64,000 bases of DNA from the IMG/VR virus record IMGVR_UViG_3300012286_000299, positions 109,277 through 173,276 of that record, one strand, 5' to 3'. Below, one piece after another: positions 44,181-64,000 of this stretch. The stretch comes from a virus. Lineage: Duplodnaviria > Heunggongvirae > Uroviricota > Caudoviricetes. The notes under the pieces are model-generated. The model did no database searches, was not told the DNA's origin, and worked only from the letters and a program-made list of their open reading frames with translations. A program made the translations under genes and the position numbers. Positions within the stretch are counted from its first letter, which is position 1; each line of letters opens with the position of its first letter.

Positions 44181-44182
44181 TT

Positions 44183-45666: not shown

Positions 45667-45668
45667 TT

Positions 45669-47433: not shown

Positions 47434-47461
47434 AATTATTAAAACTTTCTTCGTATATTTA
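47431..47461 (+). promoter_or_regulatory. promoter core TTCGTATATTTA (TAG replaces TTG at -33)
   Basis: Core at 47450-47461. Precedes ORF 47485. Confidence 0.55.
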
Positions 47462-47484
47462 AGTATAATTTTAAAAATAAAATA

Positions 47485-47679: not shown

Positions 47680-47897
47680 TGAGTGGTAAAATAACAAAAA
47701 TTCAGGAAAAAGTACCTCAAGAGACTACACTACCTGATGGAACATATACCGGAACGTGGGGTGGATACACCATTGACGTTAGGTACAAGGACAAGTCTTA
47801 TGAACTTACTACTGAAGAAGGAGTAAGAGGAATGGGATTCAAAGTAGTAGTTCATATTGTGGACGGAGTAGCAACATTCACATCAACAAATAATTAA
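47679..47897 (+). CDS. hypothetical protein
   Basis: ORF track; TAATG coupling. Confidence 0.6.
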   Translation: MSGKITKIQEKVPQETTLPDGTYTGTWGGYTIDVRYKDKSYELTTEEGVRGMGFKVVVHIVDGVATFTSTNN

Positions 47898-47899
47898 TT

Positions 47900-48133
47900 A
47901 TGAAGATATCAACAGGATGGAAAATAATATTATATGCTTTTGCAGTAATATTACTAATACAGGGTTTGGATTTATCATATTATTTGATGAATCAAAAAGA
48001 TAGTTACTTAGCTAACTTAGGGATAATAGCCTTAGTAGCAAATATTGCAGCTATAGGATATTGTTTAGTGCAAATAGTAACAAATGCTTTACAACACATT
48101 AAAGAACAAATTAAAAAAGAAGAACAGCCATGA
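47900..48133 (+). CDS. small membrane protein
   Basis: ORF track; two TM segments. Confidence 0.6.
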   Translation: MKISTGWKIILYAFAVILLIQGLDLSYYLMNQKDSYLANLGIIALVANIAAIGYCLVQIVTNALQHIKEQIKKEEQP

Positions 48134-48501
48134 TTATATTATTTTTATTAGTAATAGCTTTAGTTATAGGAATTATAATAGAGTGTATAAACATGGCTGA
48201 ACATGGAACACCCGCTAAAGATTCTGACATTTTAGAGATGTTAGAGAATTGTGAATCAAGTTATGAAGTAGAAAAAAAATGGAATGACAAATTCAAACTA
48301 AAAGCATCATATAGAACATTAGCACCTACTATACATCAAACACAGTATAGTGTTATATTTCCATATTATATAAGTGATGTAGGTGTTATTCCTATCTGGT
48401 ATAAGTCAGCAGGTAGAATTAGAAAAATATTTGAGGAAAAGATCTCTGCCTCAAAATATGATGTAACAAAGAGAGATAAATTAGGTTTAAATAAAAAATA
48501 A
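48130..48501 (+). CDS. membrane-anchored protein
   Basis: N-terminal TM segment MIILFLLVIALVIGIIIECI. Confidence 0.6.
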   Translation: MIILFLLVIALVIGIIIECINMAEHGTPAKDSDILEMLENCESSYEVEKKWNDKFKLKASYRTLAPTIHQTQYSVIFPYYISDVGVIPIWYKSAGRIRKIFEEKISASKYDVTKRDKLGLNKK

Positions 48502-48504
48502 GTT

Positions 48505-48861
48505 ATGATGATATTATTAATAATATTAGGAGTTATATGGATTGCTGGTACAATAGCATCATTTAGTAGTTTTAAATACTATAAATCAACTTACCAAAAA
48601 TTAGTAAATGGTAATGTTGTGTTTAATTATAAATCAAGTGGGTTATATTGGTTTTGTGAACCTTCAAATAAAGATAAATATATAGATGATGTTGTATTTT
48701 TTACACATCTTGATGGGACTATAAGTGATATAAAAGTAGGAGATGGAGAATATATACATGGGGGTGTATTATCATATATGAGCCCTTATTCACTTTACTG
48801 GTTGTTCAAGTATAAAAATTGGTTTAAAGAAAATAAAGCTAAATTTGATTCTATAAAATAA
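48505..48861 (+). CDS. membrane-anchored protein
   Basis: N-terminal TM segment MMILLIILGVIWIAGTIASF. Confidence 0.6.
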   Translation: MMILLIILGVIWIAGTIASFSSFKYYKSTYQKLVNGNVVFNYKSSGLYWFCEPSNKDKYIDDVVFFTHLDGTISDIKVGDGEYIHGGVLSYMSPYSLYWLFKYKNWFKENKAKFDSIK

Positions 48862-48875
48862 TTTTCGTATATTTA
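48845..48875 (+). promoter_or_regulatory. promoter, TTG-N20-TATATTTA
   Basis: TTG at 48845-48847. Precedes ORF 48902. Confidence 0.65.
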
Positions 48876-48901
48876 ATTATAATTTTAAACAAATAAAGTT
48901 T

Positions 48902-49156
48902 ATGACAACGTACAAACACATTCGTACAGGTAGAGTAATTACCGAATCAGATTACAGAAGATTAAGTTCATACGAACAAAGAGACTATTCATACAATGGA
49001 AGCTCTTCATCAACATCAGACAGTTCAGGAGATTTTTTAACATCAGCAGCTATTGGTTATGCAACTGATAATGCTTTGTTAGGAGGTGCACTTGGAGGAG
49101 ATATGCTTGGAGGTATTGTAGGTGATCTTTTAGATGGTGACGGAGGATTATTCTAA
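48902..49156 (+). CDS. glycine-zipper protein
   Basis: C-terminal LLGGALGGDMLGGIVGDLLDGDGG. Confidence 0.6.
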   Translation: MTTYKHIRTGRVITESDYRRLSSYEQRDYSYNGSSSSTSDSSGDFLTSAAIGYATDNALLGGALGGDMLGGIVGDLLDGDGGLF

Positions 49157-49443
49157 TGAAAAAAGTACTATTAGCATTACTGTTAGTTATAAGTATAGCT
49201 AGCTGTAATAAGGCTGAAGAAGCAAAAGATACAGGTAATACACAACAAGAACAAGTAGCTTGGGATTTAGACACAACTACATATGATGCTGTTGACGTAG
49301 ATGAAACTTCAGAAGATGAAGTATCTAATGGTCCCACAGAATGGATTTGGGACGGTAGTCAATTCGATACATTATATGTTGGAGCTACTTTAAGAATCTC
49401 AAACATTGATGGAGATAAAGTTTATTTAGTTATGTCAAAATAA
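49156..49443 (+). CDS. lipoprotein
   Basis: Signal peptide plus lipobox LLLVISIASC. Confidence 0.65.
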   Translation: MKKVLLALLLVISIASCNKAEEAKDTGNTQQEQVAWDLDTTTYDAVDVDETSEDEVSNGPTEWIWDGSQFDTLYVGATLRISNIDGDKVYLVMSK

Positions 49444-49445
49444 AT

Positions 49446-49476
49446 TTGATTATATAAATTTTTCTTCGTATATTAA
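49446..49476 (+). promoter_or_regulatory. promoter, TTG-N20-TATATTAA
   Basis: TTG at 49446-49448. A second, perfect TAnnTTTG box (TACCTTTG, 49509-49516) lies in the long leader before ORF 49568. Confidence 0.6.
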
Positions 49477-49567
49477 ATCATTAGAAATTTAAAAATTAAG
49501 GTTGATACTACCTTTGCAAAAATAGTATTAGATAAATAAAAACAAGTTATAAATTAAAAACAAAAAA

Positions 49568-50407
49568 ATGAAGAAAATTTTAGGTATTTTAGGAGCGATT
49601 GTATTAATTTTCGCAATGTTTAGTTCATGTGATGTGGTAAATGCCGGTCACGTAGGGGTTAAGGTTGATATGTTTGGTTCCGGTAAAGGAGTACAGAATG
49701 TAACAGCATGTACAGGATGGGTATTTTACAACCCAATCACAACAAAGGTATATGAGTTCCCAACTTATATCCAGCATAAAGAGTATAAGAAAACAGAAGA
49801 TGGAGATAATTCATTTACTGTAAATACTAAAGACGGGTCTGAGTTTAGAGTGTCACCTATACTAAATTATTCAGTTAATCCTGATAAAGCACCTTCAATC
49901 TTTGCTAAATATAGACGTACATTACCTGAATTAGAGGAAGGATTTTTAAAGACTGCTATTTATGATGCATTTAGATTAGCAACAAATAAATATTCAGCTG
50001 AAGAATTAATATCTAATCGAGCTAAATTTGAAGTTGAAGTACGTAAATTATTAGAAGCACAAATTGTTAAAGAAGGATTTATTGTTAATCAATTTACATC
50101 TAATTTAGAATATCCAACATCATTTAAGAATGCTATTAATGCTAAGAATAATGCAGTACAAGCTGCTTTAACAGCTGAGAATCAAGTTAAAACAGCTGAA
50201 GCACAAGCTAAAATTAAAGTAGCACAAGCAGCTGGTAACGCTGAAGCATTACTTACAAATGCACGAGCTGAAGCTGAATCTAATAAATTAAGATTATCAA
50301 CATTGACTCCAATGCTATTACAACAACAATGGATTGAAAAGTGGGATGGTGCATTACCAACTACACAGTTAGCATCAGGTGCTAATACAATGTATGGTTT
50401 GAAGTAA
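49568..50407 (+). CDS. SPFH/Band-7 (prohibitin/stomatin-like) lipoprotein
   Basis: Lipobox AMFSSC, GHVGVKVDMFG ... SPFH-type body, and an Ala/Gln-rich coiled-coil tail. Confidence 0.8.
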   Translation: MKKILGILGAIVLIFAMFSSCDVVNAGHVGVKVDMFGSGKGVQNVTACTGWVFYNPITTKVYEFPTYIQHKEYKKTEDGDNSFTVNTKDGSEFRVSPILNYSVNPDKAPSIFAKYRRTLPELEEGFLKTAIYDAFRLATNKYSAEELISNRAKFEVEVRKLLEAQIVKEGFIVNQFTSNLEYPTSFKNAINAKNNAVQAALTAENQVKTAEAQAKIKVAQAAGNAEALLTNARAEAESNKLRLSTLTPMLLQQQWIEKWDGALPTTQLASGANTMYGLK

Positions 50408-50425
50408 TAAAAATACTCAAAGAGG

Positions 50426-50443
50426 GGCTTGTTAATACAAGCC
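50426..50443 (+). terminator. hairpin terminator
   Basis: GGCTTG TTAATA CAAGCC followed by TTTCTTT. Confidence 0.7.
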
Positions 50444-50459
50444 TTTCTTTGTATATTAA
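50429..50459 (+). promoter_or_regulatory. promoter, TTG-N20-TATATTAA
   Basis: The TTG lies in the hairpin's 5' arm. TTTGTATATT core. Precedes ORF 50474. Confidence 0.6.
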
Positions 50460-50473
50460 ATCAAATAAAATAT

Positions 50474-51553: not shown

Positions 51554-51730
51554 ATGACTGAAAGAAAACAAATTATTCAGCAAGTAAAAGAGTTAGGTAT
51601 CAAAACTGATAAACCTGCTCATATGTGCACTACATCTTATCTTAAAGGGTTATTACCTAAAGAAGAAGTTAAACAAGAAGAAGTTAAAATTGGGTTTTTT
51701 AAGAAGGTTTTAAGAGGATTAGGCTTTTAA
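51554..51730 (+). CDS. 58-aa protein with a HeH/SAP-like N-terminus (below cutoff), paralogous to the N-terminus of ORF 59038
   Basis: IIQQVKELGIKTDKPAHMCTTSYLKGLL against IIAEVKKLGLTTEKPAHQCKTDYLQQVL. Confidence 0.55.
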   Translation: MTERKQIIQQVKELGIKTDKPAHMCTTSYLKGLLPKEEVKQEEVKIGFFKKVLRGLGF

Positions 51731-55297: not shown

Positions 55298-55366
55298 AGT
55301 CAGGTAGTGTAATGGTAGCACCCGGAGGTCACACTTCTAGAACAGGTTCGAATCCTGTCCTGACTA
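55298..55366 (+). tRNA. tRNA-like element 1 (69 nt, non-canonical; possible pseudo-tRNA, loop GUCACAC would read CAC/Val)
   Basis: Good acceptor stem AGTCAGG/CCTGACT, D arm GTGT-AATGGTA-GCAC and T arm ACAGG-TTCGAAT-CCTGT. Only 20 nt remain for position 26, the anticodon arm and the variable loop, and the best stem needs 2 G-U pairs and a C-A mismatch. No encoded CCA. Confidence 0.45.
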
Positions 55367-55367
55367 C
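55344..55367 (+). repeat. 24-nt exact direct repeat (copy 1): AGGTTCGAATCCTGTCCTGACTAC
   Basis: Identical to 55560-55583. It is the T arm plus 3' acceptor of both tRNA-like elements. Confidence 0.95.
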
Positions 55368-55482
55368 AAAGTAATGCCTGGCGAAGTTGTCAAAACCGGG
55401 ATGAAGCAGAATTGTAAATAAAACACGCGAGTGTATAATGACAGATGGGATACACAAAAGTTACAATTAGAATTACTTAAAC

Positions 55483-55582
55483 AGTCAGGTGGCACTGAAG
55501 GTAGAGTGCTCCATAAAATAAGCAATAAGTGGTAATATGGTACCAATACTTATAGCCTTAGGTTCGAATCCTGTCCTGACTA
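55483..55582 (+). tRNA. tRNA-like element 2 (100 nt) with a long internal hairpin in place of a normal anticodon/variable region
   Basis: Same acceptor stem and T loop as element 1. D arm GCAC-TGAAGGTAGA-GTGC (type-II-like). Local positions 40-74 (55522-55556) fold into a ~13-bp interrupted hairpin (ATAAGT/ACTTAT plus TGGTA/TACCA). No encoded CCA. Confidence 0.4.
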
Positions 55583-55583
55583 C
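55560..55583 (+). repeat. 24-nt exact direct repeat (copy 2)
   Basis: See 55344-55367. Confidence 0.95.
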
Positions 55584-55637: not shown

Positions 55638-55655
55638 TAGCCCCGAAAGGGGCTA
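55638..55655 (+). terminator. hairpin terminator
   Basis: TAGCCCC GAAA GGGGCTA followed by TTACTTTATTT. Confidence 0.65.
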
Positions 55656-55664
55656 TTACTTTAT

Positions 55665-55695
55665 TTGGAGGGTATAAATTAAATTCGTATATTTA
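55665..55695 (+). promoter_or_regulatory. cassette promoter (TTGGAGGGTATAAATTAAATTCGTATATTT)
   Basis: Extended right-arm consensus. Precedes ORF 55712. Confidence 0.6.
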
Positions 55696-55711
55696 TTACA
55701 AATAAAATAAA

Positions 55712-55849
55712 ATGAAAGTAGTACAATTCACATTACAGGAAAGATGGGCTGCATCAAAGCACATGGTTCAAAAGAACAAGAAAAAATACAATAGGGAAAA
55801 AGATAAAAGAGAAAATAGGGAGGCTGGTAAGTCTCCTTACTTCATTTAA
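55712..55849 (+). CDS. 45-aa basic peptide (below cutoff)
   Basis: Promoter-driven. MKVVQFTLQERWAASKHMVQKNKKKYNREKDKRENREAGKSPYFI. Confidence 0.45.
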   Translation: MKVVQFTLQERWAASKHMVQKNKKKYNREKDKRENREAGKSPYFI

Positions 55850-55878
55850 TATATTTATAAGGGTCCTTATTTAGTTTC

Positions 55879-55909
55879 TTTGAGTGTTTAAAACTAATTC
55901 GTATATTAA
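55879..55909 (+). promoter_or_regulatory. cassette promoter
   Basis: TTTGAGTG...AATTCGTATATTAAAGTATAATTAA. Precedes ORF 55933. Confidence 0.6.
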
Positions 55910-55932
55910 AGTATAATTAAAAAATAAAGGTT

Positions 55933-56202
55933 ATGAATAAAATTGAAATAGAAGGTAAAGTTTATGAGCAAATTGAACAAAAATCTTCTAATAATGGGGT
56001 AAGTAAAAAAATGCTAGGAATGTTAGCTATGGCACAAGCTATGTATAACTTATCTTTTGGTGGTTCCAATTATAGCCGACAAAGACCCTCTGTAAATATA
56101 GTTGAAGAGTTCCGACTAATACAACAAAAGAAAAGTAAATTAAATCGTTCTGATAGGGACTGGGTTATATATCAATTTAATAGAAATTTTAAAGAAGTAT
56201 AA
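55933..56202 (+). CDS. hypothetical protein
   Basis: ORF track; own promoter. Confidence 0.65.
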   Translation: MNKIEIEGKVYEQIEQKSSNNGVSKKMLGMLAMAQAMYNLSFGGSNYSRQRPSVNIVEEFRLIQQKKSKLNRSDRDWVIYQFNRNFKEV

Positions 56203-56206
56203 GGTT

Positions 56207-56524
56207 ATGAATTTAGATTTTGACTTAATTAGAAGTGAGGTATTAGTAGCACGTAAGGAAGATAGTCCTAACGATTGCCCTTCCACAAATGTTGAAGAAC
56301 TTTCTGAAAATATAAAATATTTACTTGAAGAGCTTCCTATAATGAATTTATCTAATATTGAAGACCTCGATGAGGATGAATTCAGTTTATTTGATGATTA
56401 CTTTGAGGATGAACAATTCTGGATATTGATTTGGAAAGGCAGAACATTCTTTGTAGATACTCAAGGGTATTCCTATGCAAGATATTGTGGTGAATTAATT
56501 AATTATAATGAAGTTGAGGGTTAA
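56207..56524 (+). CDS. hypothetical acidic protein
   Basis: ORF track. Confidence 0.6.
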   Translation: MNLDFDLIRSEVLVARKEDSPNDCPSTNVEELSENIKYLLEELPIMNLSNIEDLDEDEFSLFDDYFEDEQFWILIWKGRTFFVDTQGYSYARYCGELINYNEVEG

Positions 56525-56543
56525 AATTAACTTAGTATATTAA
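56513..56543 (+). promoter_or_regulatory. cassette promoter (TTAG variant)
   Basis: TTGAGGGTTAAAATTAACTTAGTATATTAAAGTATATTAA. Precedes ORF 56567. Confidence 0.6.
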
Positions 56544-56566
56544 AGTATATTAATAATTAAAAAGTT

Positions 56567-56761
56567 ATGGCAAGTAAGATATTAATGTATAATGATGTAA
56601 CCGGGGAAGTAGTAGCTACTACTGCTAGTCTTGAAGGGCATAAGTTTGCAAACTTCATTGAAAAAGGATTTAAACCTATTTGTATAGCTTACCCTGTAAG
56701 TTACTCAGTAGCTGTAGAATCCTATACTGAAGAAAAACATGTAAGGTTAACTAAAAAATAA
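56567..56761 (+). CDS. hypothetical protein
   Basis: ORF track; own promoter. Confidence 0.6.
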   Translation: MASKILMYNDVTGEVVATTASLEGHKFANFIEKGFKPICIAYPVSYSVAVESYTEEKHVRLTKK

Positions 56762-56765
56762 GATT

Positions 56766-56927
56766 ATGACACAATTTGAAAAAAATTCTTTATCAATAGC
56801 AAAAGAACTAATTGAATTAAAATTTAAGGTTCAAGTTATTGCAATAGATTTTGAAGATGGTTCGGGAAGAAATTTTATTGTAACTACAAAGGATAATCCT
56901 TTAAAGAAAAGATTTGTTAAATTTTAA
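56766..56927 (+). CDS. 53-aa protein (below cutoff)
   Basis: MTQFEKNSLSIAKELIELKF... Shares the MTQFE start with the next ORF. Confidence 0.45.
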   Translation: MTQFEKNSLSIAKELIELKFKVQVIAIDFEDGSGRNFIVTTKDNPLKKRFVKF

Positions 56928-56935
56928 ATAAGGTT

Positions 56936-57100
56936 ATGACACAGTTTGAAGAAAACAACCCTAAGGAATTAAAGAAATTTATTTCCGAGTTAGACAATCT
57001 TATAGATGAATTTCACCCTAACATATATCTAATTGATGATGTGTTTAAAGGGGTAGAAATTATAAGAAACGCTATTAAGGAAGTGATTGCTGAGAAATAA
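56936..57100 (+). CDS. 54-aa protein (below cutoff)
   Basis: MTQFEENNPKELKKFISELDNLIDEF... Confidence 0.45.
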   Translation: MTQFEENNPKELKKFISELDNLIDEFHPNIYLIDDVFKGVEIIRNAIKEVIAEK

Positions 57101-57113
57101 CTTCGTATATTTA
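57083..57113 (+). promoter_or_regulatory. cassette promoter
   Basis: AACTTCGTATATTTAAGCATAATTAA. Precedes ORF 57137. Confidence 0.6.
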
Positions 57114-57136
57114 AGCATAATTAAAATAATAAAGTT

Positions 57137-57382
57137 ATGGCAAGAGGAGAAGGAACAATTACCTATGATGGTGTAGAAATTGATATTGAATTCCAATATG
57201 AACCTTTAGTAAGAGGTAGAATGTGGATGGACAATGGTGACCCAGGTTACCCTGATGAAGGAGGTGAATTCTATATTGAAAAAGCATTCATTGGAGGGCA
57301 AGATGTAACTGATTTACTTGGTGAAGACAAGCTAGAATCAATAGCTGAAGCCTATCAAGAAAAACATGGTGGGGAATATTAA
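57137..57382 (+). CDS. hypothetical protein
   Basis: ORF track; own promoter. Confidence 0.65.
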   Translation: MARGEGTITYDGVEIDIEFQYEPLVRGRMWMDNGDPGYPDEGGEFYIEKAFIGGQDVTDLLGEDKLESIAEAYQEKHGGEY

Positions 57383-57391
57383 TTCCCTGTC

Positions 57392-57422
57392 GTGTTTATT
57401 ATAAATTTACCTCGTATATTAA
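57392..57422 (+). promoter_or_regulatory. cassette promoter (CTCG variant)
   Basis: TTACCTCGTATATTAAAGCATAATTAA. Precedes ORF 57447. Confidence 0.55.
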
Positions 57423-57446
57423 AGCATAATTAAAATAAGAAAAGTT

Positions 57447-57842
57447 ATGAGTGCTGAATCAATTAAAATTGCATTTATTAAATTAAATGCTGCTGATAAA
57501 ATTAAAGTAAGGGCTTATATAAAATCCCTTAGTGAATCTTATAAGAAACCACCCTTAAAAGTTAAGGAATATAAAGTTAATACTATAACGGGTGCACTCA
57601 AACATACCCTATCCTCAATGGGGTGTGATATTGAAAATAAATATACATTTTCAGATAATCGTACCATTGGAATCAGTGTTAAAATATGTAACTTAAAACT
57701 TACAAAATCCCAGGAACAAGAAGTGAAATCTAAAATGGAAAACTTGGGGTACACTTACCACAGTATAAAAAGACCTTCACATAATCATGGTTCACCATAT
57801 TATAGAGATACTTTTAAGGGTACAAGATTTCATTTTTCTTAA
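57447..57842 (+). CDS. hypothetical protein
   Basis: ORF track; own promoter. Confidence 0.65.
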   Translation: MSAESIKIAFIKLNAADKIKVRAYIKSLSESYKKPPLKVKEYKVNTITGALKHTLSSMGCDIENKYTFSDNRTIGISVKICNLKLTKSQEQEVKSKMENLGYTYHSIKRPSHNHGSPYYRDTFKGTRFHFS

Positions 57843-57855
57843 AATAGTTAAGGTA

Positions 57856-57886
57856 TAGTGAGGTATAAATTAACTTCGTATATTAA
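57856..57886 (+). promoter_or_regulatory. cassette promoter
   Basis: GTGAGGTATAAATTAACTTCGTATATTAAGGCATAATTAA. Precedes ORF 57914. Confidence 0.65.
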
Positions 57887-57913
57887 GGCATAATTAATTA
57901 AAACATTAATATA

Positions 57914-58222
57914 ATGGATTACGGAAAAAAGTATTTCACTAACAACAATAAATTTGGTGTTGGTAGAGTTGAGACAATGAGGTTAGTTAATCAACCTGAA
58001 ATTTTGAATTTCATAACTCACAATCCTGGAAGAACAGAACTACAAATTATGGAGCAGTTGTATAATTACCCTAATTATGTAGGTATATTTCAGGAAAGTA
58101 ATAAAAAGTATGCTGACCGATTAAGAGCATTACTTCATAGTGGGAAAATATCCCGAGTTAAAGCTAGAACCATAGATGGGCCTCGTTTTATATATTTCTC
58201 AATATATGAGAAAAAGGCATAG
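57914..58222 (+). CDS. hypothetical protein
   Basis: ORF track; own promoter. Confidence 0.65.
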   Translation: MDYGKKYFTNNNKFGVGRVETMRLVNQPEILNFITHNPGRTELQIMEQLYNYPNYVGIFQESNKKYADRLRALLHSGKISRVKARTIDGPRFIYFSIYEKKA

Positions 58223-58250
58223 TAAGGTATAAATTAACTTCGTATATTAA
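58220..58250 (+). promoter_or_regulatory. cassette promoter
   Basis: GTAAGGTATAAATTAACTTCGTATATTAAGGCATAATTAA. Precedes ORF 58275. Confidence 0.65.
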
Positions 58251-58274
58251 GGCATAATTAAAATATTAAATGTT

Positions 58275-58571
58275 ATGAGTAAGTATGTAGAATTAATGAA
58301 TAACCCACCTAAATTAACTATTAAGGAGGGTGCTCGAGAAGTAGTGTTTAAAACCATAGCAAGTATGTGTGATAATGTTCACTACATTACATTCAAGAAA
58401 AATAATGAAGGTGACTTCAAAATGAGCGGTAATGGGTTTTCACTCTCAAACTGGGGAATGAAACATACACCTCAAGAGATTGAGTGGGAAGCAGATGAAA
58501 ACCTATGGGGAGGGGTTATTGCAATGGTTAATTCAGGTTATGAAGTTATTGAATCTGTAGTAAGTAGATAA
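58275..58571 (+). CDS. hypothetical protein
   Basis: ORF track; own promoter. Confidence 0.65.
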   Translation: MSKYVELMNNPPKLTIKEGAREVVFKTIASMCDNVHYITFKKNNEGDFKMSGNGFSLSNWGMKHTPQEIEWEADENLWGGVIAMVNSGYEVIESVVSR

Positions 58572-58578
58572 TAAGGCA

Positions 58579-58609
58579 TTTTGAGGTATAAATTAACTTC
58601 GTATATTAA
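58579..58609 (+). promoter_or_regulatory. cassette promoter
   Basis: TTGAGGTATAAATTAACTTCGTATATTAAAGTATAATTAA. Precedes ORF 58638. Confidence 0.65.
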
Positions 58610-58637
58610 AGTATAATTAAAATAAATAATTAAGGTT

Positions 58638-58952
58638 ATGACAAAAACACAAACAGTAGACTTATTAAAAAGTCAATTGCCAGGATTTTATTCCGCAGAA
58701 CAAGTAATCAATCTAATTGAGAAGATGGAGGACACTCCAAAAATTACTCAGGAACACATTAAAGAAATTGCAAGAAGTATCATGAATGATATTGAAAGCG
58801 AGGCACAAAGAGGTCACATTGTCAGTAATGACGAGGTTGAATTTGACTTAAGACACAGAGAAATTGAAGTGACTGACGTTCCAATTAACTTTGATACCAT
58901 CAGAGAGTGTATTGAAGAAGGTCTATCAAATGCCTTTGAAGAAGAAGAATAA
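58638..58952 (+). CDS. hypothetical acidic protein
   Basis: ORF track; own promoter. Confidence 0.65.
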   Translation: MTKTQTVDLLKSQLPGFYSAEQVINLIEKMEDTPKITQEHIKEIARSIMNDIESEAQRGHIVSNDEVEFDLRHREIEVTDVPINFDTIRECIEEGLSNAFEEEE

Positions 58953-58961
58953 ATCAAGGTA

Positions 58962-58992
58962 GTTGAGGGACAAAAATAAATTCGTATATTTA
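58962..58992 (+). promoter_or_regulatory. cassette promoter
   Basis: TTGAGGGACAAAAATAAATTCGTATATTTAAAACATATTAA. Precedes ORF 59038. Confidence 0.6.
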
Positions 58993-59037
58993 AAACATAT
59001 TAATAATAAAAAAGTTTAATTTTAAAATTTAAAGGTT

Positions 59038-59499
59038 ATGAACAGAATTGAAATCATTGCAGAAGTAAAAAAATTAGGTTTAACAACAGAAAAACCTGCG
59101 CACCAATGTAAAACTGATTACTTACAACAAGTATTAGATGCACACTATGCAACTAGTGTTGAAGTAAAACAGAAAGGTAGACCTGTGAATGAAAACAGTG
59201 AACGCCAAAAACGACTTGCTGAATTAGAAGCAAAACGTGAAGCAGGTGAACTACGTAAAGGTAGACCAGTAGTGGAAGGTAGTGCTCGTCAAGTGAGATT
59301 ATCACTTAAAGGTACATTGCCATTAGGTAGAAAACCAAATCCTGAAAGCGCTGCTTACAAACGTAAAATGGAATTGGAAGCAAAACGTGCTGCGGGTGAA
59401 CTAAAAAGAGGTAGACCAGCACAAGTAAAAGAAGCAGCTGAACCAGTAGCAGCTCAAGTAGAAGCGCCTGCAGCAGCAGAGCCACAAACTGAAGTATAA
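59038..59499 (+). CDS. AT-hook-type DNA-binding protein with a HeH/SAP-like N-terminus and an internal repeat
   Basis: GRP cores x4 (KGRPVNE, KGRPVVE, LGRKPNP, KRGRPAQ). Repeated ELEAKR(E/A)AGEL(R/K)(K/R)GRP. Ala/Pro-rich tail. Visibly GC-richer. Confidence 0.7.
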   Translation: MNRIEIIAEVKKLGLTTEKPAHQCKTDYLQQVLDAHYATSVEVKQKGRPVNENSERQKRLAELEAKREAGELRKGRPVVEGSARQVRLSLKGTLPLGRKPNPESAAYKRKMELEAKRAAGELKRGRPAQVKEAAEPVAAQVEAPAAAEPQTEV

Positions 59500-59516
59500 G
59501 AATTAATTACAGAAAA

Positions 59517-59541
59517 GGGACATGACGATTAGTTATGTCCC
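59517..59541 (+). terminator. hairpin after ORF 59038
   Basis: GGGACAT gacgattagtt ATGTCCC followed by TTACTTT. Confidence 0.55.
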
Positions 59542-59568
59542 TTACTTTAACCCTTAATCAGTATATAT

Positions 59569-59805
59569 TTGAAAAGACATACAGTAATTAGCAAAAAATA
59601 TGTTGAAACCTACAAAAATTACCCTAAAGCAAAACCCAAACCACAATATATAATTGGGTGTGTTTATTATGGAAGAAACCGCTCAAATCATTTAAAATTA
59701 GGCATACTAACCTTATTTGGTGATAGGGTATCAACTTTAAAAACTAAAGATGGTAAATTGGTTAAAGTTAAAAATAACACTCTAAAAAGCGCTCAAACAG
59801 GGTAG
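59569..59805 (+). CDS. hypothetical basic protein (start codon doubtful)
   Basis: The ORF track uses a TTG that is part of a perfect TATATTTG (-7-type) box at 59564-59571. There is no in-frame ATG. Confidence 0.35.
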   Translation: MKRHTVISKKYVETYKNYPKAKPKPQYIIGCVYYGRNRSNHLKLGILTLFGDRVSTLKTKDGKLVKVKNNTLKSAQTG

Positions 59806-59835
59806 TTTGAGGTATAATTTAACTTCGTATATTAA
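59805..59835 (+). promoter_or_regulatory. cassette promoter
   Basis: TTGAGGTATAATTTAACTTCGTATATTAAAGTATAATTAA. Precedes ORF 59860. Confidence 0.65.
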
Positions 59836-59859
59836 AGTATAATTAATAAATACATTATT

Positions 59860-59982
59860 ATGGTAAAAGTAGTTAAATCAGGCATCACATATTATGAGGT
59901 AAATTTAGGTAGTATATCTCTAATTGCATTTGAACCACAGGAATTAGTTATTAGCAACAGAAAAACCTGCGCACCAATGTAA
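59860..59982 (+). CDS. 40-aa ORF whose 3' end is rewritten by the duplication junction
   Basis: MVKVVKSGITYYEVNLGSISLIAFEPQELVI then SNRKTCAPM-stop. The second copy at 60731 ends RMVNMNISLN-stop. Confidence 0.4.
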   Translation: MVKVVKSGITYYEVNLGSISLIAFEPQELVISNRKTCAPM

Positions 59983-60370
59983 AACTGATTACTTACAACA
60001 AGTATTAGATGCACACTATGCAACTAGTGTTGAAGTAAAACAGAAAGGTAGACCTGTGAATGAAAACAGTGAACGCCAAAAACGACTTGCTGAATTAGAA
60101 GCAAAACGTGAAGCAGGTGAACTACGTAAAGGTAGACCAGTAGTGGAAGGTAGTGCTCGTCAAGTGAGATTATCACTTAAAGGTACATTGCCATTAGGTA
60201 GAAAACCAAATCCTGAAAGCGCTGCTTACAAACGTAAAATGGAATTGGAAGCAAAACGTGCTGCGGGTGAACTAAAAAGAGGTAGACCAGCACAAGTAAA
60301 AGAAGCAGCTGAACCAGTAGCAGCTCAAGTAGAAGCGCCTGCAGCAGCAGAGCCACAAACTGAAGTATAA
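59948..60370 (+). pseudogene. 5'-truncated duplicate of the AT-hook gene (lacks the first 15 codons, promoter and ATG)
   Basis: The frame opens after a TAG at 59945-59947. The ORF track could only start it at a GTG (60056). Sequence is identical to 59077-59499. Confidence 0.6.
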
Positions 60371-60387
60371 GAATTAATTACAGAAAA

Positions 60388-60412
60388 GGGACATGACGAT
60401 TAGTTATGTCCC
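60388..60412 (+). terminator. hairpin (duplicate of 59517-59541)
   Basis: Identical sequence at +871. Confidence 0.55.
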
Positions 60413-60439
60413 TTACTTTAACCCTTAATCAGTATATAT

Positions 60440-60676
60440 TTGAAAAGACATACAGTAATTAGCAAAAAATATGTTGAAACCTACAAAAATTACCCTAAAG
60501 CAAAACCCAAACCACAATATATAATTGGGTGTGTTTATTATGGAAGAAACCGCTCAAATCATTTAAAATTAGGCATACTAACCTTATTTGGTGATAGGGT
60601 ATCAACTTTAAAAACTAAAGATGGTAAATTGGTTAAAGTTAAAAATAACACTCTAAAAAGCGCTCAAACAGGGTAG
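60440..60676 (+). CDS. duplicate of ORF 59569 (same start-codon doubt)
   Basis: Identical 78-aa translation. Confidence 0.35.
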   Translation: MKRHTVISKKYVETYKNYPKAKPKPQYIIGCVYYGRNRSNHLKLGILTLFGDRVSTLKTKDGKLVKVKNNTLKSAQTG

Positions 60677-60706
60677 TTTGAGGTATAATTTAACTTCGTA
60701 TATTAA
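60676..60706 (+). promoter_or_regulatory. cassette promoter (duplicate)
   Basis: Identical to 59805-59835. Precedes ORF 60731. Confidence 0.65.
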
Positions 60707-60730
60707 AGTATAATTAATAAATACATTATT

Positions 60731-60856
60731 ATGGTAAAAGTAGTTAAATCAGGCATCACATATTATGAGGTAAATTTAGGTAGTATATCTCTAATTGCAT
60801 TTGAACCACAGGAATTAGTTATTAGAATGGTAAACATGAATATATCACTAAACTAA
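60731..60856 (+). CDS. 41-aa ORF, presumably the ancestral version of ORF 59860
   Basis: Promoter-driven; below the ORF-track cutoff. Confidence 0.45.
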   Translation: MVKVVKSGITYYEVNLGSISLIAFEPQELVIRMVNMNISLN

Positions 60857-60864
60857 TAAAGGTT

Positions 60865-61128
60865 ATGACGGAAAAATCAACTCAACAAGCGGCAAACGTT
60901 GCCAAAATAGGATTAATTATTTTATGGGCGGCATTCATGTATTCCCTAACATCATGTGGTTCACAATGTTCAAGAACAAAACGTTATTGGAGAAACCATA
61001 GATGTGTCGAGGTGAAAACCCAAAAATCAATCAACAGGGCAAGAAGATCATTGGATAGAAGAATACAATCAGCACAACAACAGTATGCTATTGTCAACAA
61101 TGAAATCATAATGTTTGAAAATTATTAG
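60865..61128 (+). CDS. lipoprotein / membrane-anchored basic protein
   Basis: IGLIILWAAFMYSLTSCGS (signal peptide plus lipobox). Confidence 0.6.
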   Translation: MTEKSTQQAANVAKIGLIILWAAFMYSLTSCGSQCSRTKRYWRNHRCVEVKTQKSINRARRSLDRRIQSAQQQYAIVNNEIIMFENY

Positions 61129-61133
61129 TGGTC

Positions 61134-61164
61134 GTTTGAGGTATAAATTTACTTCGTATATTTA
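61134..61164 (+). promoter_or_regulatory. cassette promoter
   Basis: TTGAGGTATAAATTTACTTCGTATATTTAAGCATATTAA. Precedes ORF 61193. Confidence 0.65.
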
Positions 61165-61192
61165 AGCATATTAATAATTAAAATATAATGTT

Positions 61193-61375
61193 ATGAAATT
61201 TAATGGTTTTGAAAAGTACTTAATTATACAAGGGTTAAATATAGTTAAGGAACAAGCTAAAACTGAAATACGTGAAGCTATAGCCAAAGGTGAAATGCCT
61301 ATTATGACGGAAGATTTCATTGATATAACTGTGAAAGAAGCCCTAGACAAATTAAATAAATTAACTGTAGAATAA
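61193..61375 (+). CDS. hypothetical protein
   Basis: ORF track; own promoter. Confidence 0.6.
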   Translation: MKFNGFEKYLIIQGLNIVKEQAKTEIREAIAKGEMPIMTEDFIDITVKEALDKLNKLTVE

Positions 61376-61377
61376 TT

Positions 61378-61563
61378 ATGGTAGCTAAAGTAAGAGAATA
61401 CTTCAGACAAAACTATGGACACGTGTACTTTGATGACATTAGTGATTCATTTATTGAAGAATACATGTCACGTTCCTACGTAGTCTCATTATCATTTGAA
61501 ATGCAAATGGACTGTTTGTATGATGCAGTCATGTCACAATCAATGGTTGATTATGACGAATAA
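61378..61563 (+). CDS. hypothetical protein
   Basis: ORF track. Confidence 0.55.
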   Translation: MVAKVREYFRQNYGHVYFDDISDSFIEEYMSRSYVVSLSFEMQMDCLYDAVMSQSMVDYDE

Positions 61564-61579
61564 AAAATTAATTATGGTA

Positions 61580-61610
61580 TGTGAGGGTTAAATATAACCT
61601 CGTATATTTA
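61580..61610 (+). promoter_or_regulatory. cassette promoter (CTCG variant)
   Basis: GTGAGGGTTAAATATAACCTCGTATATTTAAGTATAATTAA. Precedes ORF 61635. Confidence 0.6.
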
Positions 61611-61634
61611 AGTATAATTAATAAATAAAACATC

Positions 61635-61901
61635 ATGACAAAAGAGGAATTTATAGCAGGAACACCGTTCTATGTAGGTAAAAAAAGATACAGAGGTGAA
61701 TCAACACACTATTATGACCCAAAAATAGGTTGTATTTGTAAACAAAATAGATCTTCGGCCGATGAAAGAATTGTACTTGAAGATTATGCTTGCAATATTA
61801 AAAAAGTAGGTAGATTAGGGTTCGAAGGGTTCACTCATGTAATGAATAAACAAGTGAATGTTAAATATAAATTTGAGCATTTGAGTGTATTTGAGGGTTA
61901 A
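61635..61901 (+). CDS. hypothetical protein
   Basis: ORF track; own promoter. Confidence 0.65.
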   Translation: MTKEEFIAGTPFYVGKKRYRGESTHYYDPKIGCICKQNRSSADERIVLEDYACNIKKVGRLGFEGFTHVMNKQVNVKYKFEHLSVFEG

Positions 61902-61920
61902 GATTAGCTTCGTATATTAA
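61890..61920 (+). promoter_or_regulatory. cassette promoter
   Basis: TTGAGGGTTAAGATTAGCTTCGTATATTAAGGTATAATTAA. Overlaps the 3' end of ORF 61635. Precedes ORF 61951. Confidence 0.65.
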
Positions 61921-61950
61921 GGTATAATTAATAATAAAAACATAAAGGTT

Positions 61951-62316
61951 ATGAAAAAAGTTGTAAAAAAAGCATCACAGGTTAAGGTATCTATTACCCA
62001 CAAAACATTAATGGTGAATTTCGAGTTCCCAATTGTAGTAGGACAAGTTAAGATAATTGCTATTGGTCTAGCTCATGTTTATAAGGGTGATGAATCAGGA
62101 CAAATTGAAGCAGATATCGATTTTATGGATTATGGGGAAACAACCTATATGGACATGCCTGTTGAGGGGTATGAGGGTGTGAAAAAGTTAAAGGAAATGC
62201 ACAAAGGATTTGGTATTGACTTAGGTACCCTAATTGATAATGAATTCAATAAGGTTGTAACAGAGGAATTCAAAACCGAATTCCTAAAACAATTCGACGT
62301 TAGAATGTTTGAATAA
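61951..62316 (+). CDS. hypothetical protein
   Basis: ORF track; own promoter. Confidence 0.65.
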   Translation: MKKVVKKASQVKVSITHKTLMVNFEFPIVVGQVKIIAIGLAHVYKGDESGQIEADIDFMDYGETTYMDMPVEGYEGVKKLKEMHKGFGIDLGTLIDNEFNKVVTEEFKTEFLKQFDVRMFE

Positions 62317-62323
62317 TAAAAAT

Positions 62324-62342
62324 AAGCCCCGGAATGGGGCTT
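62324..62342 (+). terminator. hairpin terminator
   Basis: AAGCCCC GGAAT GGGGCTT. Confidence 0.6.
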
Positions 62343-62365
62343 ATAAATTTTACTTCGTATATTTA
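62335..62365 (+). promoter_or_regulatory. cassette promoter
   Basis: TTTTACTTCGTATATTTAAGTATAATTAA. Precedes ORF 62388. Confidence 0.6.
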
Positions 62366-62387
62366 AGTATAATTAAAAATTAAGGTT

Positions 62388-62705
62388 ATGTTAAATACAA
62401 CTTATTTAGGAAGAGAAATCACTAGACGTGATAATGTTAAAGTAGAAGGTACATTCCAATCATTTTATGAGGCATCAAAACGTTTGATGGGGATGGGTTA
62501 TATAATGGGAAGCATGTGTGGAGATGAACCAATAGGGTTTGCCGATGCAGACAAATACGAGTATATTGCCAAATGGAGAAACATTGACCCGAGCGATAGA
62601 GTAAAAGTGGACGGGGTAATGATCAGTAGTGACTGGAGAGAGGGTAGTGTTGAAATAATATGGTTTAAAGAGCCATTAAATAAGGCAGTAGCGGGTATAA
62701 ATTAA
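62388..62705 (+). CDS. hypothetical protein
   Basis: ORF track; own promoter. Confidence 0.65.
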   Translation: MLNTTYLGREITRRDNVKVEGTFQSFYEASKRLMGMGYIMGSMCGDEPIGFADADKYEYIAKWRNIDPSDRVKVDGVMISSDWREGSVEIIWFKEPLNKAVAGIN

Positions 62706-62718
62706 CTTCGTATATTGA
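62688..62718 (+). promoter_or_regulatory. cassette promoter
   Basis: GCGGGTATAAATTAACTTCGTATATTGAGGTATAATTAA. Overlaps the 3' end of ORF 62388. Precedes ORF 62743. Confidence 0.6.
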
Positions 62719-62742
62719 GGTATAATTAAAAAAGTAAACGTT

Positions 62743-63087
62743 ATGGTAAAAGAAATTACTGCAATAGATAAACTGATTGCTATTGAGGAAATGCTTGTTA
62801 AAATGAGGTATGACACTACAGGAATGAGTGTGAGCCAAGCACTGGAAATAATGAAGGCAACGGTAAAGGCTATTGATAAAGCAAAATTACCCTCAAACAC
62901 GATTTACCCTATGACACGAGACGATTTATACAAAATAATGGATTCAGAAAACTATACGGTGGACGAGATCAAAGATTCAGTGTATATGGGGAACAGAATA
63001 ACCACTATATTGGAGAATGAGGACGTGGAGATAGATGACGAACAGGTAAAGGTGTTGGTGGTAGAGTACCAAAATGCTAGAGCATAG
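62743..63087 (+). CDS. hypothetical protein
   Basis: ORF track; own promoter. Confidence 0.65.
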   Translation: MVKEITAIDKLIAIEEMLVKMRYDTTGMSVSQALEIMKATVKAIDKAKLPSNTIYPMTRDDLYKIMDSENYTVDEIKDSVYMGNRITTILENEDVEIDDEQVKVLVVEYQNARA

Positions 63088-63231
63088 TAATGTTAAACCA
63101 TTCCAATATCTAAAGATATCGTAATGTGGAAACTTATTCCTAGTATATTGGGGTAACGGACAAATGTTCCGGCGGTAACGCTTAATAGTATAGTTGTATG
63201 TGGAAATTGGGTTAAATTGGGGTGGATAATA

Positions 63232-63256
63232 GGGCAGGGTCTCCGCTCCCCTGCCC
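63232..63256 (+). other. GC-rich 8-bp stem hairpin inside an ORF-free GC-rich spacer
   Basis: GGGCAGGG tctccgctc CCCTGCCC. Confidence 0.7.
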
Positions 63257-63311
63257 CGTTATGGAATAACTTTCCTCCCTACCTCCCTTGTATATACAAT
63301 TTTTAATGGAA

Positions 63312-63342
63312 CTAGGTGGAACAAATCAACTTCGTATATTAT
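63312..63342 (+). promoter_or_regulatory. cassette promoter
   Basis: CAACTTCGTATATTATAGTATATTAA. Precedes ORF 63371. Confidence 0.6.
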
Positions 63343-63370
63343 AGTATATTAATAATTAAACAACTATATT

Positions 63371-63553
63371 ATGATAAAGTTTGAGGTTTACCCAAGTGTT
63401 AGATTACAAGCACACCAATTGTTAATCAATTCGAACCGTTTGAAAAGTGTATTTTATAATACTGGAAATACTTTCCTAATTGACCCCGTTGATTTACCTC
63501 GTTGTAAGGAAATACTTACCAAACGAATGATTAAATTAAAGGTAGTTAATTAA
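63371..63553 (+). CDS. hypothetical protein
   Basis: ORF track; own promoter. Confidence 0.6.
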   Translation: MIKFEVYPSVRLQAHQLLINSNRLKSVFYNTGNTFLIDPVDLPRCKEILTKRMIKLKVVN

Positions 63554-63557
63554 GGTA

Positions 63558-63588
63558 ATAGGGGAATAAAAATCCCTTCGTATATTAT
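63558..63588 (+). promoter_or_regulatory. cassette promoter
   Basis: TCCCTTCGTATATTATAGTATAATAA. Precedes ORF 63619. Confidence 0.6.
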
Positions 63589-63618
63589 AGTATAATAAAA
63601 AATATAAAATTAAAGGTT

Positions 63619-63855
63619 ATGAAAGCTAAAGTACAAATTAAATCAGTGTTCGAACAAATTGCAGGTAAAGTATTTACCATGACCAATGTTACCCAAGCCA
63701 AAGAGTATATCACTGAATTTATTACCAGTAAAGGTATTGATGGTACCGACAAACAAACCATCGTTAATAACGTTAATAAATGTACCTCAATTGCACAACT
63801 ACAACGTTACGTGTGTAATTCATTATTAATGTATGAGGGTATGGGTATCAGTTAA
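63619..63855 (+). CDS. hypothetical protein
   Basis: ORF track; own promoter. Confidence 0.65.
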   Translation: MKAKVQIKSVFEQIAGKVFTMTNVTQAKEYITEFITSKGIDGTDKQTIVNNVNKCTSIAQLQRYVCNSLLMYEGMGIS

Positions 63856-63885
63856 TACCCCGCTATTACCCACATTCCCACCGCA

Positions 63886-63930
63886 GGGACCCAGGCTTTA
63901 CAGCCCCGGGTCCCTTCTTTGTTTTTCTTT
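63886..63930 (+). terminator. strong GC-rich rho-independent terminator
   Basis: GGGACCC-a-GGCT ttac AGCC-cc-GGGTCCC followed by TTCTTTGTTTTTCTTT. Confidence 0.75.
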
Positions 63931-63940
63931 CCCTTTTCGT

Positions 63941-63961
63941 CCGAATTCGGTCCGCATGCGG
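63941..63961. repeat. two back-to-back perfect 10-bp palindromes
   Basis: CCGAATTCGG (63941-63950) and CCGCATGCGG (63952-63961), separated by one T, in GC-rich DNA. Confidence 0.9.
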
Positions 63962-64000
63962 ATCGGCACGGGTTGCCCACGCGGCGTTGCTGTCCATAAA

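Follow-up and report, generated by a model that had tools for sequence, protein, structure and literature searches.

In phage T4, early transcription starts at many strong host-type promoters, of the sigma-70 kind with UP-like elements, each of which drives one or a few small non-essential genes, and many of these genes serve to take over the host or to counter its defences. For the hyperplastic regions of the T4-like phages RB49/phi1, T4/PST, and KVP40/nt-1, promoter-early stem-loop (PeSL) cassettes have been described, in which crossovers were located to the interval from the −10 box to the ATG and the formation of mini-circles was demonstrated (PMC2839356, PMC4122927). We analyzed a stretch of 64,000 nucleotides (nt) of viral DNA (the window; positions 109,277 to 173,276 of IMG/VR record IMGVR_UViG_3300012286_000299), in which the segment from 55,665 to 63,855 is occupied by an array of short genes sharing an upstream sequence, the header. 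We put the probability at roughly 0.7 that this array belongs to a hyperplastic, promoter-rich block in which the headers are promoters read by the host and recombination from head to head moves early gene cassettes. The array is the densest part of this block, which covers ~38 to 64 kb of the window.

The header was searched for by its core, the 10-mer TTCGTATATT, either exact or with at most one mismatch. Between 55,665 and 63,855 we counted 18 cores, all on the plus strand and 214 to 871 bp apart (55684, 55898, 56532, 57102, 57411, 57875, 58239, 58598, 58981, 59824, 60695, 61153, 61599, 61909, 62354, 62707, 63331, and 63577), in agreement with a preliminary description of this DNA that had listed about 18 units of 250 to 870 bp. 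In the whole window, the core with up to one mismatch occurs 43 times compared to 11.4 times expected, a number reached by none of 100 shuffled sequences, and the exact core occurs 28 times on the plus strand and 0 times on the minus strand. The long consensus of ~40 nt that had been ascribed to every unit applies to ~10 of the 18 headers, whereas the others share the core and the following box. The 23-mer TATAAATTAACTTCGTATATTAA, allowing three mismatches, gave 11 matches versus 0.01 expected, 10 of them in the array and one at 54394. Five headers that had been singled out as nearly identical indeed agree pairwise in 31 to 39 of 40 nt. The header is not confined to the array: 14 further sites of this class, with TTTGG at −36 to −32, are located on the plus strand between 38182 and 54730 (cores at 38214, 39471, 41686, 43414, 45004, 47450, 48864, 49465, 50448, 51739, 52612, 53083, 54405, and 54696), and three more between 1725 and 8413, again on the plus strand (cores at 1757, 3959, and 8386). 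At 34 of 36 window sites, all on one strand, an open reading frame (ORF) starting with ATG follows the core within 16 to 47 nt, mostly 23 to 30 nt.

A megablast comparison of the array with 50,697 phage records yielded no nucleotide match, and an attempt to place the lineage via the family-B DNA polymerase was uninformative, the best match being a Microcystis phage at just 34% identity. A blast search with one 70-nt header led to Flavobacterium phage vB_FspM_immuto_2-6A (MW353175; 160 kb; genus Immutovirus; here immuto), whose proteins show 40 to 60% amino acid identity to those of the window in a conserved gene order. In immuto, a glycosyltransferase cluster, HNH, and DUF932 are followed by ~35 small hypothetical genes and then by T5orf172, phosphohydrolase, and baseplate genes. 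The small genes, immuto26A_113 to _147, are annotated as hypothetical and form a one-strand array of headed genes at the same position as in the window; the papers on immuto retrieved in a literature search apparently describe neither the array nor the headers. The closest metagenomic relatives are L003 and L004 (IMG/VR), L006 to L014 (JGI freshwater metagenomes), and L015 and L016 (Logan). As the relatives run on past the last array gene, sharing one continuation in which a GC-rich element and a few genes come before the baseplate module, the array is an internal block between the replication/metabolism genes and the structural genes, and the designation "right arm" used previously describes the window rather than the genome. 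The source appears to be a T4-related freshwater myovirus of the Immutovirus type that has not been cultured. Its probable host is a Flavobacterium-like bacterium within the Bacteroidota, as judged from the cultured relative immuto (Flavobacterium sp. LMO8).

The coupling between core and ATG-initiated ORF was also found in the relatives, at 23 of 24 sites in L003 and 24 of 26 sites in L011. A scan of IMG/VR with the core plus the start box matched at least 118 loci, at least 40 of which, on contigs as long as 168 kb, contain 5 to 32 exact cores that all lie on a single strand and are coupled to an ATG in this way. The header design is common in uncultured aquatic phages.

Positions within the header were numbered in keeping with the Flavobacterium −7 box TAHHTTTG (PMC6847099), which puts TATATT at −12 to −7. 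The Flavobacterium promoter has T−12, A−11, T−8, T−7, T−6, and G−5, a −33 element TTTG, and AT-rich motifs at −18 and −28 (PMC6847099). TTTG or TTG is present at −36 to −33, the host −33 position, in the headers at 38 to 55.6 kb (class A), in L003, and in immuto. It is followed by an AT-rich spacer and TTCG at −16 to −13, and the headers have an AT-rich TATAAATTAA at −27 to −18. TATATTWA at −12 to −5 directly follows TTCG, and T−12, A−11, T−8, and T−7 are found in all headers. The sub-family dominating the array has the form AAGGYA-N4-(T)TGAGGTATAAATTAAC-TTCGTATATT; here (TTGAGGTATAAATTAAC) the TTG is displaced by 1 to 2 nt or GTG/GTA is found instead, and two GG boxes at about −39/−38 and −29/−28 lie one helical turn apart. 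The immuto headers have the form AGTTGC-N16-TTCnTATATTTAGGTATCAATAATTAAAAC, with a variable fourth core base (TTCnTAT). At −5, the window lineage and immuto alike have an A, after which comes G at −3 or GG at −4/−3.

All lineages possess a second TATAAT-like box starting at about −3 to +1 (YATAATTAAAA in the window, GGTATCAATAATTAAAAC in immuto). Rather than a second promoter, in the sense of the tandem start signal suggested before, we take this box to be the transcript start together with the first bases of the leader. The leader comprises 17 to 24 nt, is A-rich, ends in (A)AGGTTATG, and has no Shine-Dalgarno sequence at functional spacing. Its length agrees with the median 5′-untranslated region of 24 nt in Flavobacterium psychrophilum (PMC9723704). 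An AAGG preceding the ATG was considered as a Shine-Dalgarno sequence and dismissed, as the gap is just 2 nt and Bacteroidota do not use such sequences (PMC6847099). The start context AAGGTTATG, reported before as frequent here and recurring elsewhere in the window, occurs 21 times on the plus strand and 0 times on the minus strand, with 0.65 expected, and TTATG precedes 28 of 34 promoter-proximal genes versus 35 of 95 other genes. A GC-rich, terminator-like hairpin was found at 12 of 37 window sites, 8 of 24 sites in L003, 6 of 25 in L011, and 6 of 22 in immuto; within the array the scan detected it in 6 of 18 headers, in addition to a more distant hairpin before 55898. It lies between the −33 element and the core or overlaps them, and its T-run extends into the TTC of the core. 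Hairpin and promoter would thus form a very compact terminator-promoter unit.

As judged from these features, the header reads as a Bacteroidetes-type promoter. A sigma-70 reading of TTGAGG-N15-TATATT, or of the second box, was rejected on account of wrong spacing, the lack of a −35 element for the second box, and a lineage that infects Bacteroidota. An assignment to an extracytoplasmic function (ECF) sigma factor, based on CGT in the −10 region and a GGAA box upstream, failed since the spacing is 3 to 4 nt too long and the G is variable in immuto. A generic sigma-70 scan of the window was uninformative in this AT-rich DNA, with 85 sites compared to 101 expected. The header would then be a full expression signal composed of a −33 element TTTG/TTG (shifted 1 to 2 nt in the array sub-family), an AT-rich spacer that in about one-third of the cases contains a hairpin and T-run able to terminate the upstream transcript, the invariant TTCG with TATATTWA, and the start region YATAATTAAAA with its A-rich, Shine-Dalgarno-free leader. 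Most likely, host RNA polymerase with the primary sigma factor would read this signal without help from the phage.

Several features of the headers weigh against this unaided reading. The nearly invariant G−5 of the host is present in no header and T−6 in about half of them. TTCG is invariant in the window, L003, L010, L011, and at least 40 IMG/VR loci, yet the host consensus does not include it. In L010 and L011, the −33 TTG is missing, and an AAGGA box is found ~6 nt further upstream, where the upstream GG box is located. The missing G−5 and the invariant TTCG leave room for dependence on a phage factor. The headers could accordingly be promoters for a phage-modified or phage-specified polymerase, involving a sigma factor made by the phage, an activator that takes over the host sigma in the manner of T4 middle promoters, or ADP-ribosylated RNA polymerase, and the cassettes would then be delayed-early or middle rather than immediate-early genes. 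The displaced TTG and the two phased GG boxes of the array sub-family fit this alternative, as does a gene for a 354-residue protein with a PARP-type ADP-ribosyltransferase domain at 47-1111 on the plus strand (Pfam E = 1e-16). We nevertheless consider it unlikely: TTG occupies the exact host −33 position in class-A and immuto headers, the variable fourth core base in immuto means that CGT is not universally required, and no sigma-like or MotA/AsiA-like protein was found among the larger ORFs scanned. Moreover, immuto has no other enriched host-like promoter on the plus strand (2 plus versus 9 minus), and an unmodified enzyme must read some class. For a 266-residue protein encoded 3′ of the array in L003, which looked sigma-like by eye, no Pfam, PHROG, or PDB sequence match was obtained, and we make no claim about it. 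A broader and still less probable proposal is that the headers constitute a private promoter code, shared by a large and mostly uncultured clade of aquatic Bacteroidota phages and read by host polymerase reprogrammed by a virion-delivered or very early factor, the ~70-nt module serving also as the substrate of mini-circle cassette exchange between co-infecting phages. The PARP-type protein is a candidate modifier of host proteins, e.g. RNA polymerase, and bears on the question of which enzyme reads the headers.

If the host enzyme reads the headers unaided, as we prefer, the cassettes would be early genes. The likeness of the headers to host promoters in geometry and their distribution in the complete immuto genome are consistent with cassettes that are early, or at least not late: in immuto, of 22 plus-strand header motifs, 20 are located at 60.9 to 76.2 kb and none in the structural half at 80 to 160 kb, where a different motif, TATTTATA, is found upstream of 13 of 32 genes. 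A second promoter-like motif, (C)ATATTTATA / TATTTATA, also lies ~20 to 25 nt upstream of some replication-region genes in the window (13480-13540, 20540-20574, 23390-23426, and 25060-25103) and is a candidate for a late or middle promoter class.

The relatives are not collinear in the array. Gene content and order differ among the window, L003/L004, L006, L010, L011, L013, L015, and immuto, and the gain, loss, and shuffling of cassettes envisaged in the preliminary description were found as insertions, deletions, replacements, and one transposition, most junctions lying in headers or at the ATG. In the left part of the window array, the order of families is F16, two genes present only in the window, two more such genes with F17, F18, three cassettes of which the third carries F19, and F20; the right part continues with F9, F21 and others, F22, F23, F24, F25, further genes, and F26. 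In L003 the order is F16, F18, F20, F9, F24, F22, F23, F25, further genes, F29, and F26, and yet other family orders were found in L006, L011, and L013. Immuto shares at least six families with the window, in the order F16, F21, F22, F11, F20, F23.

Blocks shared by the window and L003 begin at a header core and end at the following header or ATG (57110-57450, 58586-59434, 59504-59849, 61908-62390, 62306-62745, and 63566-63855). Nine of 16 block ends fall into headers, which make up 19% of the sequence (binomial P = 9e-4), and most of the other ends are gaps within syntenic genes. In a three-way alignment, the L003 header at 8402 proved to be chimeric, its left part resembling the window header at 57411 and its right part that at 58598, which accounts for the insertion or deletion of three cassettes (units 5 to 7). 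The F24 cassette precedes F22 and F23 in L003 and follows them in the window, and is bounded by headers in both genomes (window 61908-62390, L003 9616-10083). In L015, which is 93 to 96% identical, the F25 coding sequence and the next header are exchanged for a 23-residue hydrophobic ORF (L015 112-183), the junctions lying a few bases past one ATG and at the next ATG. Headers of orthologous genes are often less similar (identity 0.37 to 0.60) than headers of non-orthologous genes within one genome (0.67 to 0.81), and the upstream half of the header tracks the upstream gene (identity 0.73 versus 0.61; Mann-Whitney P = 0.007).

The turnover is seen directly in the genomes compared, and we infer recombination between headers as its mechanism. 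Exchange between the ~70-nt heads, whether it takes place within the promoter or in the stretch from the −7 box to the ATG, would delete, insert, replace, or move whole genes, and since every cassette bears the same head, whole expressed genes would be moved unbroken. Over time, related phages would thereby come to hold differing sets of cassettes. The proposal that headers serve as sites of homologous exchange is supported by the position of the junctions, but identical runs between headers have a median of only 12 nt and a maximum of 37 nt; such exchange is therefore plausible, not proven. The short identity is one of a group of findings that speak against header-mediated exchange. The leader tracks the downstream gene weakly and not significantly (P = 0.12), the headers by their very nature align with one another, and selection for intact genes would by itself be enough to leave the surviving junctions close to the borders of genes. 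Furthermore, the sole rearrangement visible inside the window, a tandem duplication of 871 bp with 100% identity on the plus strand (59084-59954 and 59955-60825), is independent of headers. It copies the 3′ part of a 153-residue gene, a 78-residue gene with a TTG start, and one header; the junction lies within ORFs with zero shared bases and yields a frame-shifted chimera of 40 residues (59860-59982). L003 has a single copy of this segment. The junction ORF, F9, and the 87-residue ORF of unit 11 are on record in no other assembly searched, so that the duplication is without independent confirmation; it may have arisen very recently or be an artefact of the assembly.

These findings allow for an alternative in which the headers are expression signals only, and turnover results from illegitimate, homology-independent recombination and horizontal acquisition, with gene-breaking recombinants being lost. 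Besides the duplication junction, the right junction of the L015 replacement, a bare TTATG without header, is in accord with it, as are exact tracts between headers of mostly ≤12 nt and the alignability of headers, which inflates the apparent coincidence of junctions with them. As the sole cause of turnover we regard this mechanism as doubtful, since the chimeric L003 header changes partner within the header, the upstream half of a header travels together with the gene preceding it, the window-L003 junctions show no truncated gene remnants, and recombination between equivalent elements was shown experimentally in T4-like phages (PMC2839356). In the preferred reading, exchange between heads would be accompanied by header-independent illegitimate recombination, to which the 871-bp duplication points.

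A conserved site of ~40 nt bounding each cassette could also be the target of a dedicated site-specific recombinase or homing endonuclease in an integron-like capture of cassettes. The window encodes a homing endonuclease at 25103-25774 and an HNH protein at 37536-38192, and the relatives carry a T5orf172 gene downstream. This explanation is highly improbable: unlike in an integron-like system, no integrase or other recombinase was found among the ORFs scanned, and the headers are neither inverted repeats nor palindromic or attC-like; crossover points vary, being located inside the promoter, after the core, or at the ATG; and the header motif also precedes conserved non-cassette genes such as DUF932.

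Turnover is not limited to the array. Between 38.2 and 54.7 kb there are large insertions and deletions relative to L003/L004 as well. Two blocks of ~3 kb each, 42329-45668 with five genes including a tRNA nucleotidyltransferase and 47450-50470 with three genes including a Band-7 protein, are missing from L003/L004, and as both are bounded by promoters of the header class, the plastic region begins well before 55.7 kb.

The individual units, all on the plus strand, contain one to three ORFs of 40 to 153 residues. In line with the earlier statement that these belong to no recognisable families, no Pfam match was obtained among 20 ORFs (10 tested), and the best PHROG match was not under E = 0.008. 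As noted previously, some headers overlap the stop codon of the preceding gene; this applies to ORFs 61635-61901 and 62388-62705 and likewise to 56207-56524. Unit 1 (55652-55849, core 55684-55693) follows a hairpin at 55638-55655 and encodes a protein of 45 residues (55712-55849, F16), which is kept in L003 (71%) and immuto. Unit 2 (55866-56524, core 55898-55907) has two ORFs of 89 (55933-56202) and 105 residues (56207-56524), neither of which is present in L003; the stop codon of the second lies inside the header of unit 3 (56500-57100, core 56532-56541, TTAGTATATT). The three ORFs of unit 3 comprise 64 (56567-56761), 53 (56766-56927), and 54 residues (56936-57100), the last one belonging to F17, which is common to the window and L011. 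In the case of unit 4 (57070-57382, core 57102-57111; ORF 57137-57382, 81 residues, F18), homology to L003 begins at 57110, the end of the core; L003 has kept the leader, and the promoter is missing there.

Units 5 to 7 are the three cassettes missing from L003. Unit 5 (57379-57842, core 57411-57420, CTCGTATATT) has a hairpin at 57371-57387 and an ORF of 131 residues (57447-57842), unit 6 (57843-58222, core 57875-57884) an ORF of 102 residues (57914-58222), and unit 7 (58207-58571, core 58239-58248) an ORF of 98 residues (58275-58571, F19), whose family is found in L011 at another relative position. The headers of units 6 and 7 are identical in 39 of 40 nt, with an exact run of 37 nt. A block of L003 homology begins at 58586 within the header of unit 8 (58566-58952, core 58598-58607); its ORF of 104 residues (58638-58952) belongs to F20, and a scan of IMG/VR with the F20 protein gave no match.

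Unit 9 (58949-59805, core 58981-58990) contains the F9 ORF of 153 residues (59038-59499), with a hairpin 3′ of its stop codon, and the ORF of 78 residues with a TTG start (59569-59805). The F9 protein has three K/RGRP motifs, AT-hook-like, in two repeats of 50 residues, and its N-terminal 35 residues are common to a paralogue of 58 residues encoded at 51554-51730. An assignment as HeH/AT-hook protein received no Pfam support, and a DNA-binding role is a tentative reading of these motifs. The 78-residue gene is kept in L003 with mostly synonymous differences and is preceded by a hairpin and the strongly conserved TTAACCnTTAATCAGTATATATTTG; it is missed by gene calling restricted to ATG. Unit 10 (59792-60676, core 59824-59833, hairpin 59792-59811), a product of the tandem duplication, consists of the chimeric ORF (59860-59982), a 5′-truncated, frame-shifted F9 copy, and the second copy of the 78-residue ORF (60440-60676). 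Unit 11 (60663-61128, core 60695-60704) has an ORF of 41 residues (60731-60856, F21), with a homologue of 41 residues and 63% identity in the immuto array, and an ORF of 87 residues (60865-61128). Units 10 and 11 partly coincide with the exact tandem duplication of 871 bp and thus do not represent independent cassettes. The 87-residue protein has a hydrophobic segment followed by a lipobox-like LTSC; together with the 23-residue ORF of L015, this indicates that small membrane proteins are seemingly part of the cassette pool.

Unit 12 (61121-61563, core 61153-61162) encodes proteins of 60 (61193-61375) and 61 residues (61378-61563, F22). It is followed by unit 13 (61567-61901, core 61599-61608, CTCGTATATT; ORF 61635-61901, 88 residues, F23), whose stop codon at 61899-61901 lies within the header of unit 14 (61877-62316, core 61909-61918; ORF 61951-62316, 121 residues, F24), the transposed cassette. 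Unit 15 (62322-62705, core 62354-62363; ORF 62388-62705, 105 residues, F25) has an embedded terminator hairpin at 62322-62344. The ORF of 114 residues (62743-63087) in unit 16 (62675-63087, core 62707-62716) is followed by 240 nt of non-coding sequence. Unit 17 (63299-63553, core 63331-63340) has an ORF of 60 residues (63371-63553). Unit 18 (63545-63855, core 63577-63586, hairpin 63560-63578) contains the last array gene (63619-63855, 78 residues, F26), which is kept in L003 and in L006 to L016.

Several non-coding elements adjoin or interrupt the array. Just 5′ of it, two tRNA-like genes are located at 55298-55583. The first (55298-55366) scored 44.8 bits with Rfam, has an anticodon arm 2 nt short, and could not be named by ARAGORN; the second (~55484-55583) has an insertion of ~50 nt and a 24-nt 3′ end identical to that of the first. 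L003 has a tRNA match of 146 nt at the corresponding place, and in the Rfam scan tRNA was the sole match. On the other side, a conserved GC-rich non-coding element of ~230 nt lies 3′ of the last array gene in all close relatives (window 63856-64000, cut off by the window end; L003 12600-12830; also L007, L008, L009, and L015) and is followed by a different promoter-like sequence, CCATATACTTATAGGAAATTAAAATTAAAT. No Rfam match was obtained for it and no convincing covariation in the three sequences available; conceivable roles are those of an RNA, an origin, or a packaging signal. The non-coding stretch of 240 nt in unit 16 (63088-63330) has a raised G+C content and a hairpin, GGCAGGG...CCCCTGCC. 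It folds no better than shuffled sequences (z = −1.65) and has no homologue in the relatives; upon comparison, it was found not to be a copy of the GC-rich element.

In the window as a whole, coding is on the plus strand throughout, and the G+C content is ~30%. The window contains T4-type replication and nucleotide genes (split family-B DNA polymerase, clamp loader, exonuclease) as well as genes for thymidylate synthase, QueE, GTP cyclohydrolase, GroEL, ligase, glycosyltransferases, and homing endonucleases. The DNA polymerase (14085-17012) is encoded by two ORFs separated by 264 nt, one of 575 residues covering the exonuclease and the start of the palm and one of 311 residues covering the C-terminal part.

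The array carries the concept of regulatory cassettes that double as recombination modules beyond the T4-like phages of Proteobacteria, into the widespread, barely studied Flavobacterium-type phages, which have another promoter grammar and no Shine-Dalgarno sequence. The header consensus provides a compact marker of probable early genes in such phages, and the headers are short candidate modules of strong promoter plus leader for the genetics of Bacteroidota, where standard expression signals fail. The ORFans of the array represent a defined, fast-turnover pool for screens of host-takeover and anti-defence functions. The cultured relative immuto, growing on Flavobacterium sp. LMO8, puts these uses within experimental reach.

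By its sequence features, the array appears to be the counterpart, in a Flavobacterium phage, of the hyperplastic regions known from T4-like phages, and it shares most of the sequence-level traits by which PeSL cassettes are recognized. As in PeSL, composite elements of ~50 to 70 nt join a host-type promoter to the translation start of the next gene and are interspersed among small ORFans where the genome of a T4-related myovirus is variable. Relatives differ next to these elements by insertions, deletions, replacements, or displacements, the crossovers falling between the −10 box and the start codon or within the AT-rich portion, and the elements are missing from structural modules, as exemplified by immuto. 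The promoters have two boxes of the host type in both systems, here, in class A, L003, and immuto, in the −33/−7 geometry of the host phylum. The differences lie in the Bacteroidetes −33/−7 arrangement with an invariant TTCG in place of the sigma-70 promoter TTGACA-N17-TATAAT of PeSL, in an A-rich leader ending in GTTATG without Shine-Dalgarno sequence, in a stem-loop that is present in about one-third of the headers and lies inside rather than upstream of the promoter, and in the very high density of 18 headers in 8.2 kb. Mini-circles have been demonstrated for PeSL; for the array described here they would be a prediction, as would early transcription.

Compared to the primary-sigma promoter of Bacteroidetes, the headers lack the complete −7 box with T−6 and G−5, and the −33 TTTG is in place in class A, L003, and immuto, shifted or exchanged for GTG/GTA in the array, and missing in L010/L011. 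The GG boxes of the array recall T4 middle promoters, but no MotA/AsiA-like match was found among the ORFs scanned, most of the small ones being unclassifiable. The many host-type promoters, each with one or a few small genes, correspond to the early clusters of T4, except that the promoter type is not sigma-70 here. A further counterpart is the immuto array, which has the same genomic position, the same headed small genes on one strand, and at least six families in common (F11, F16, F20, F21, F22, and F23), and which differs in its header, in ~40 to 60% amino acid identity, in its cassette order, and in its origin from a brackish-water isolate.

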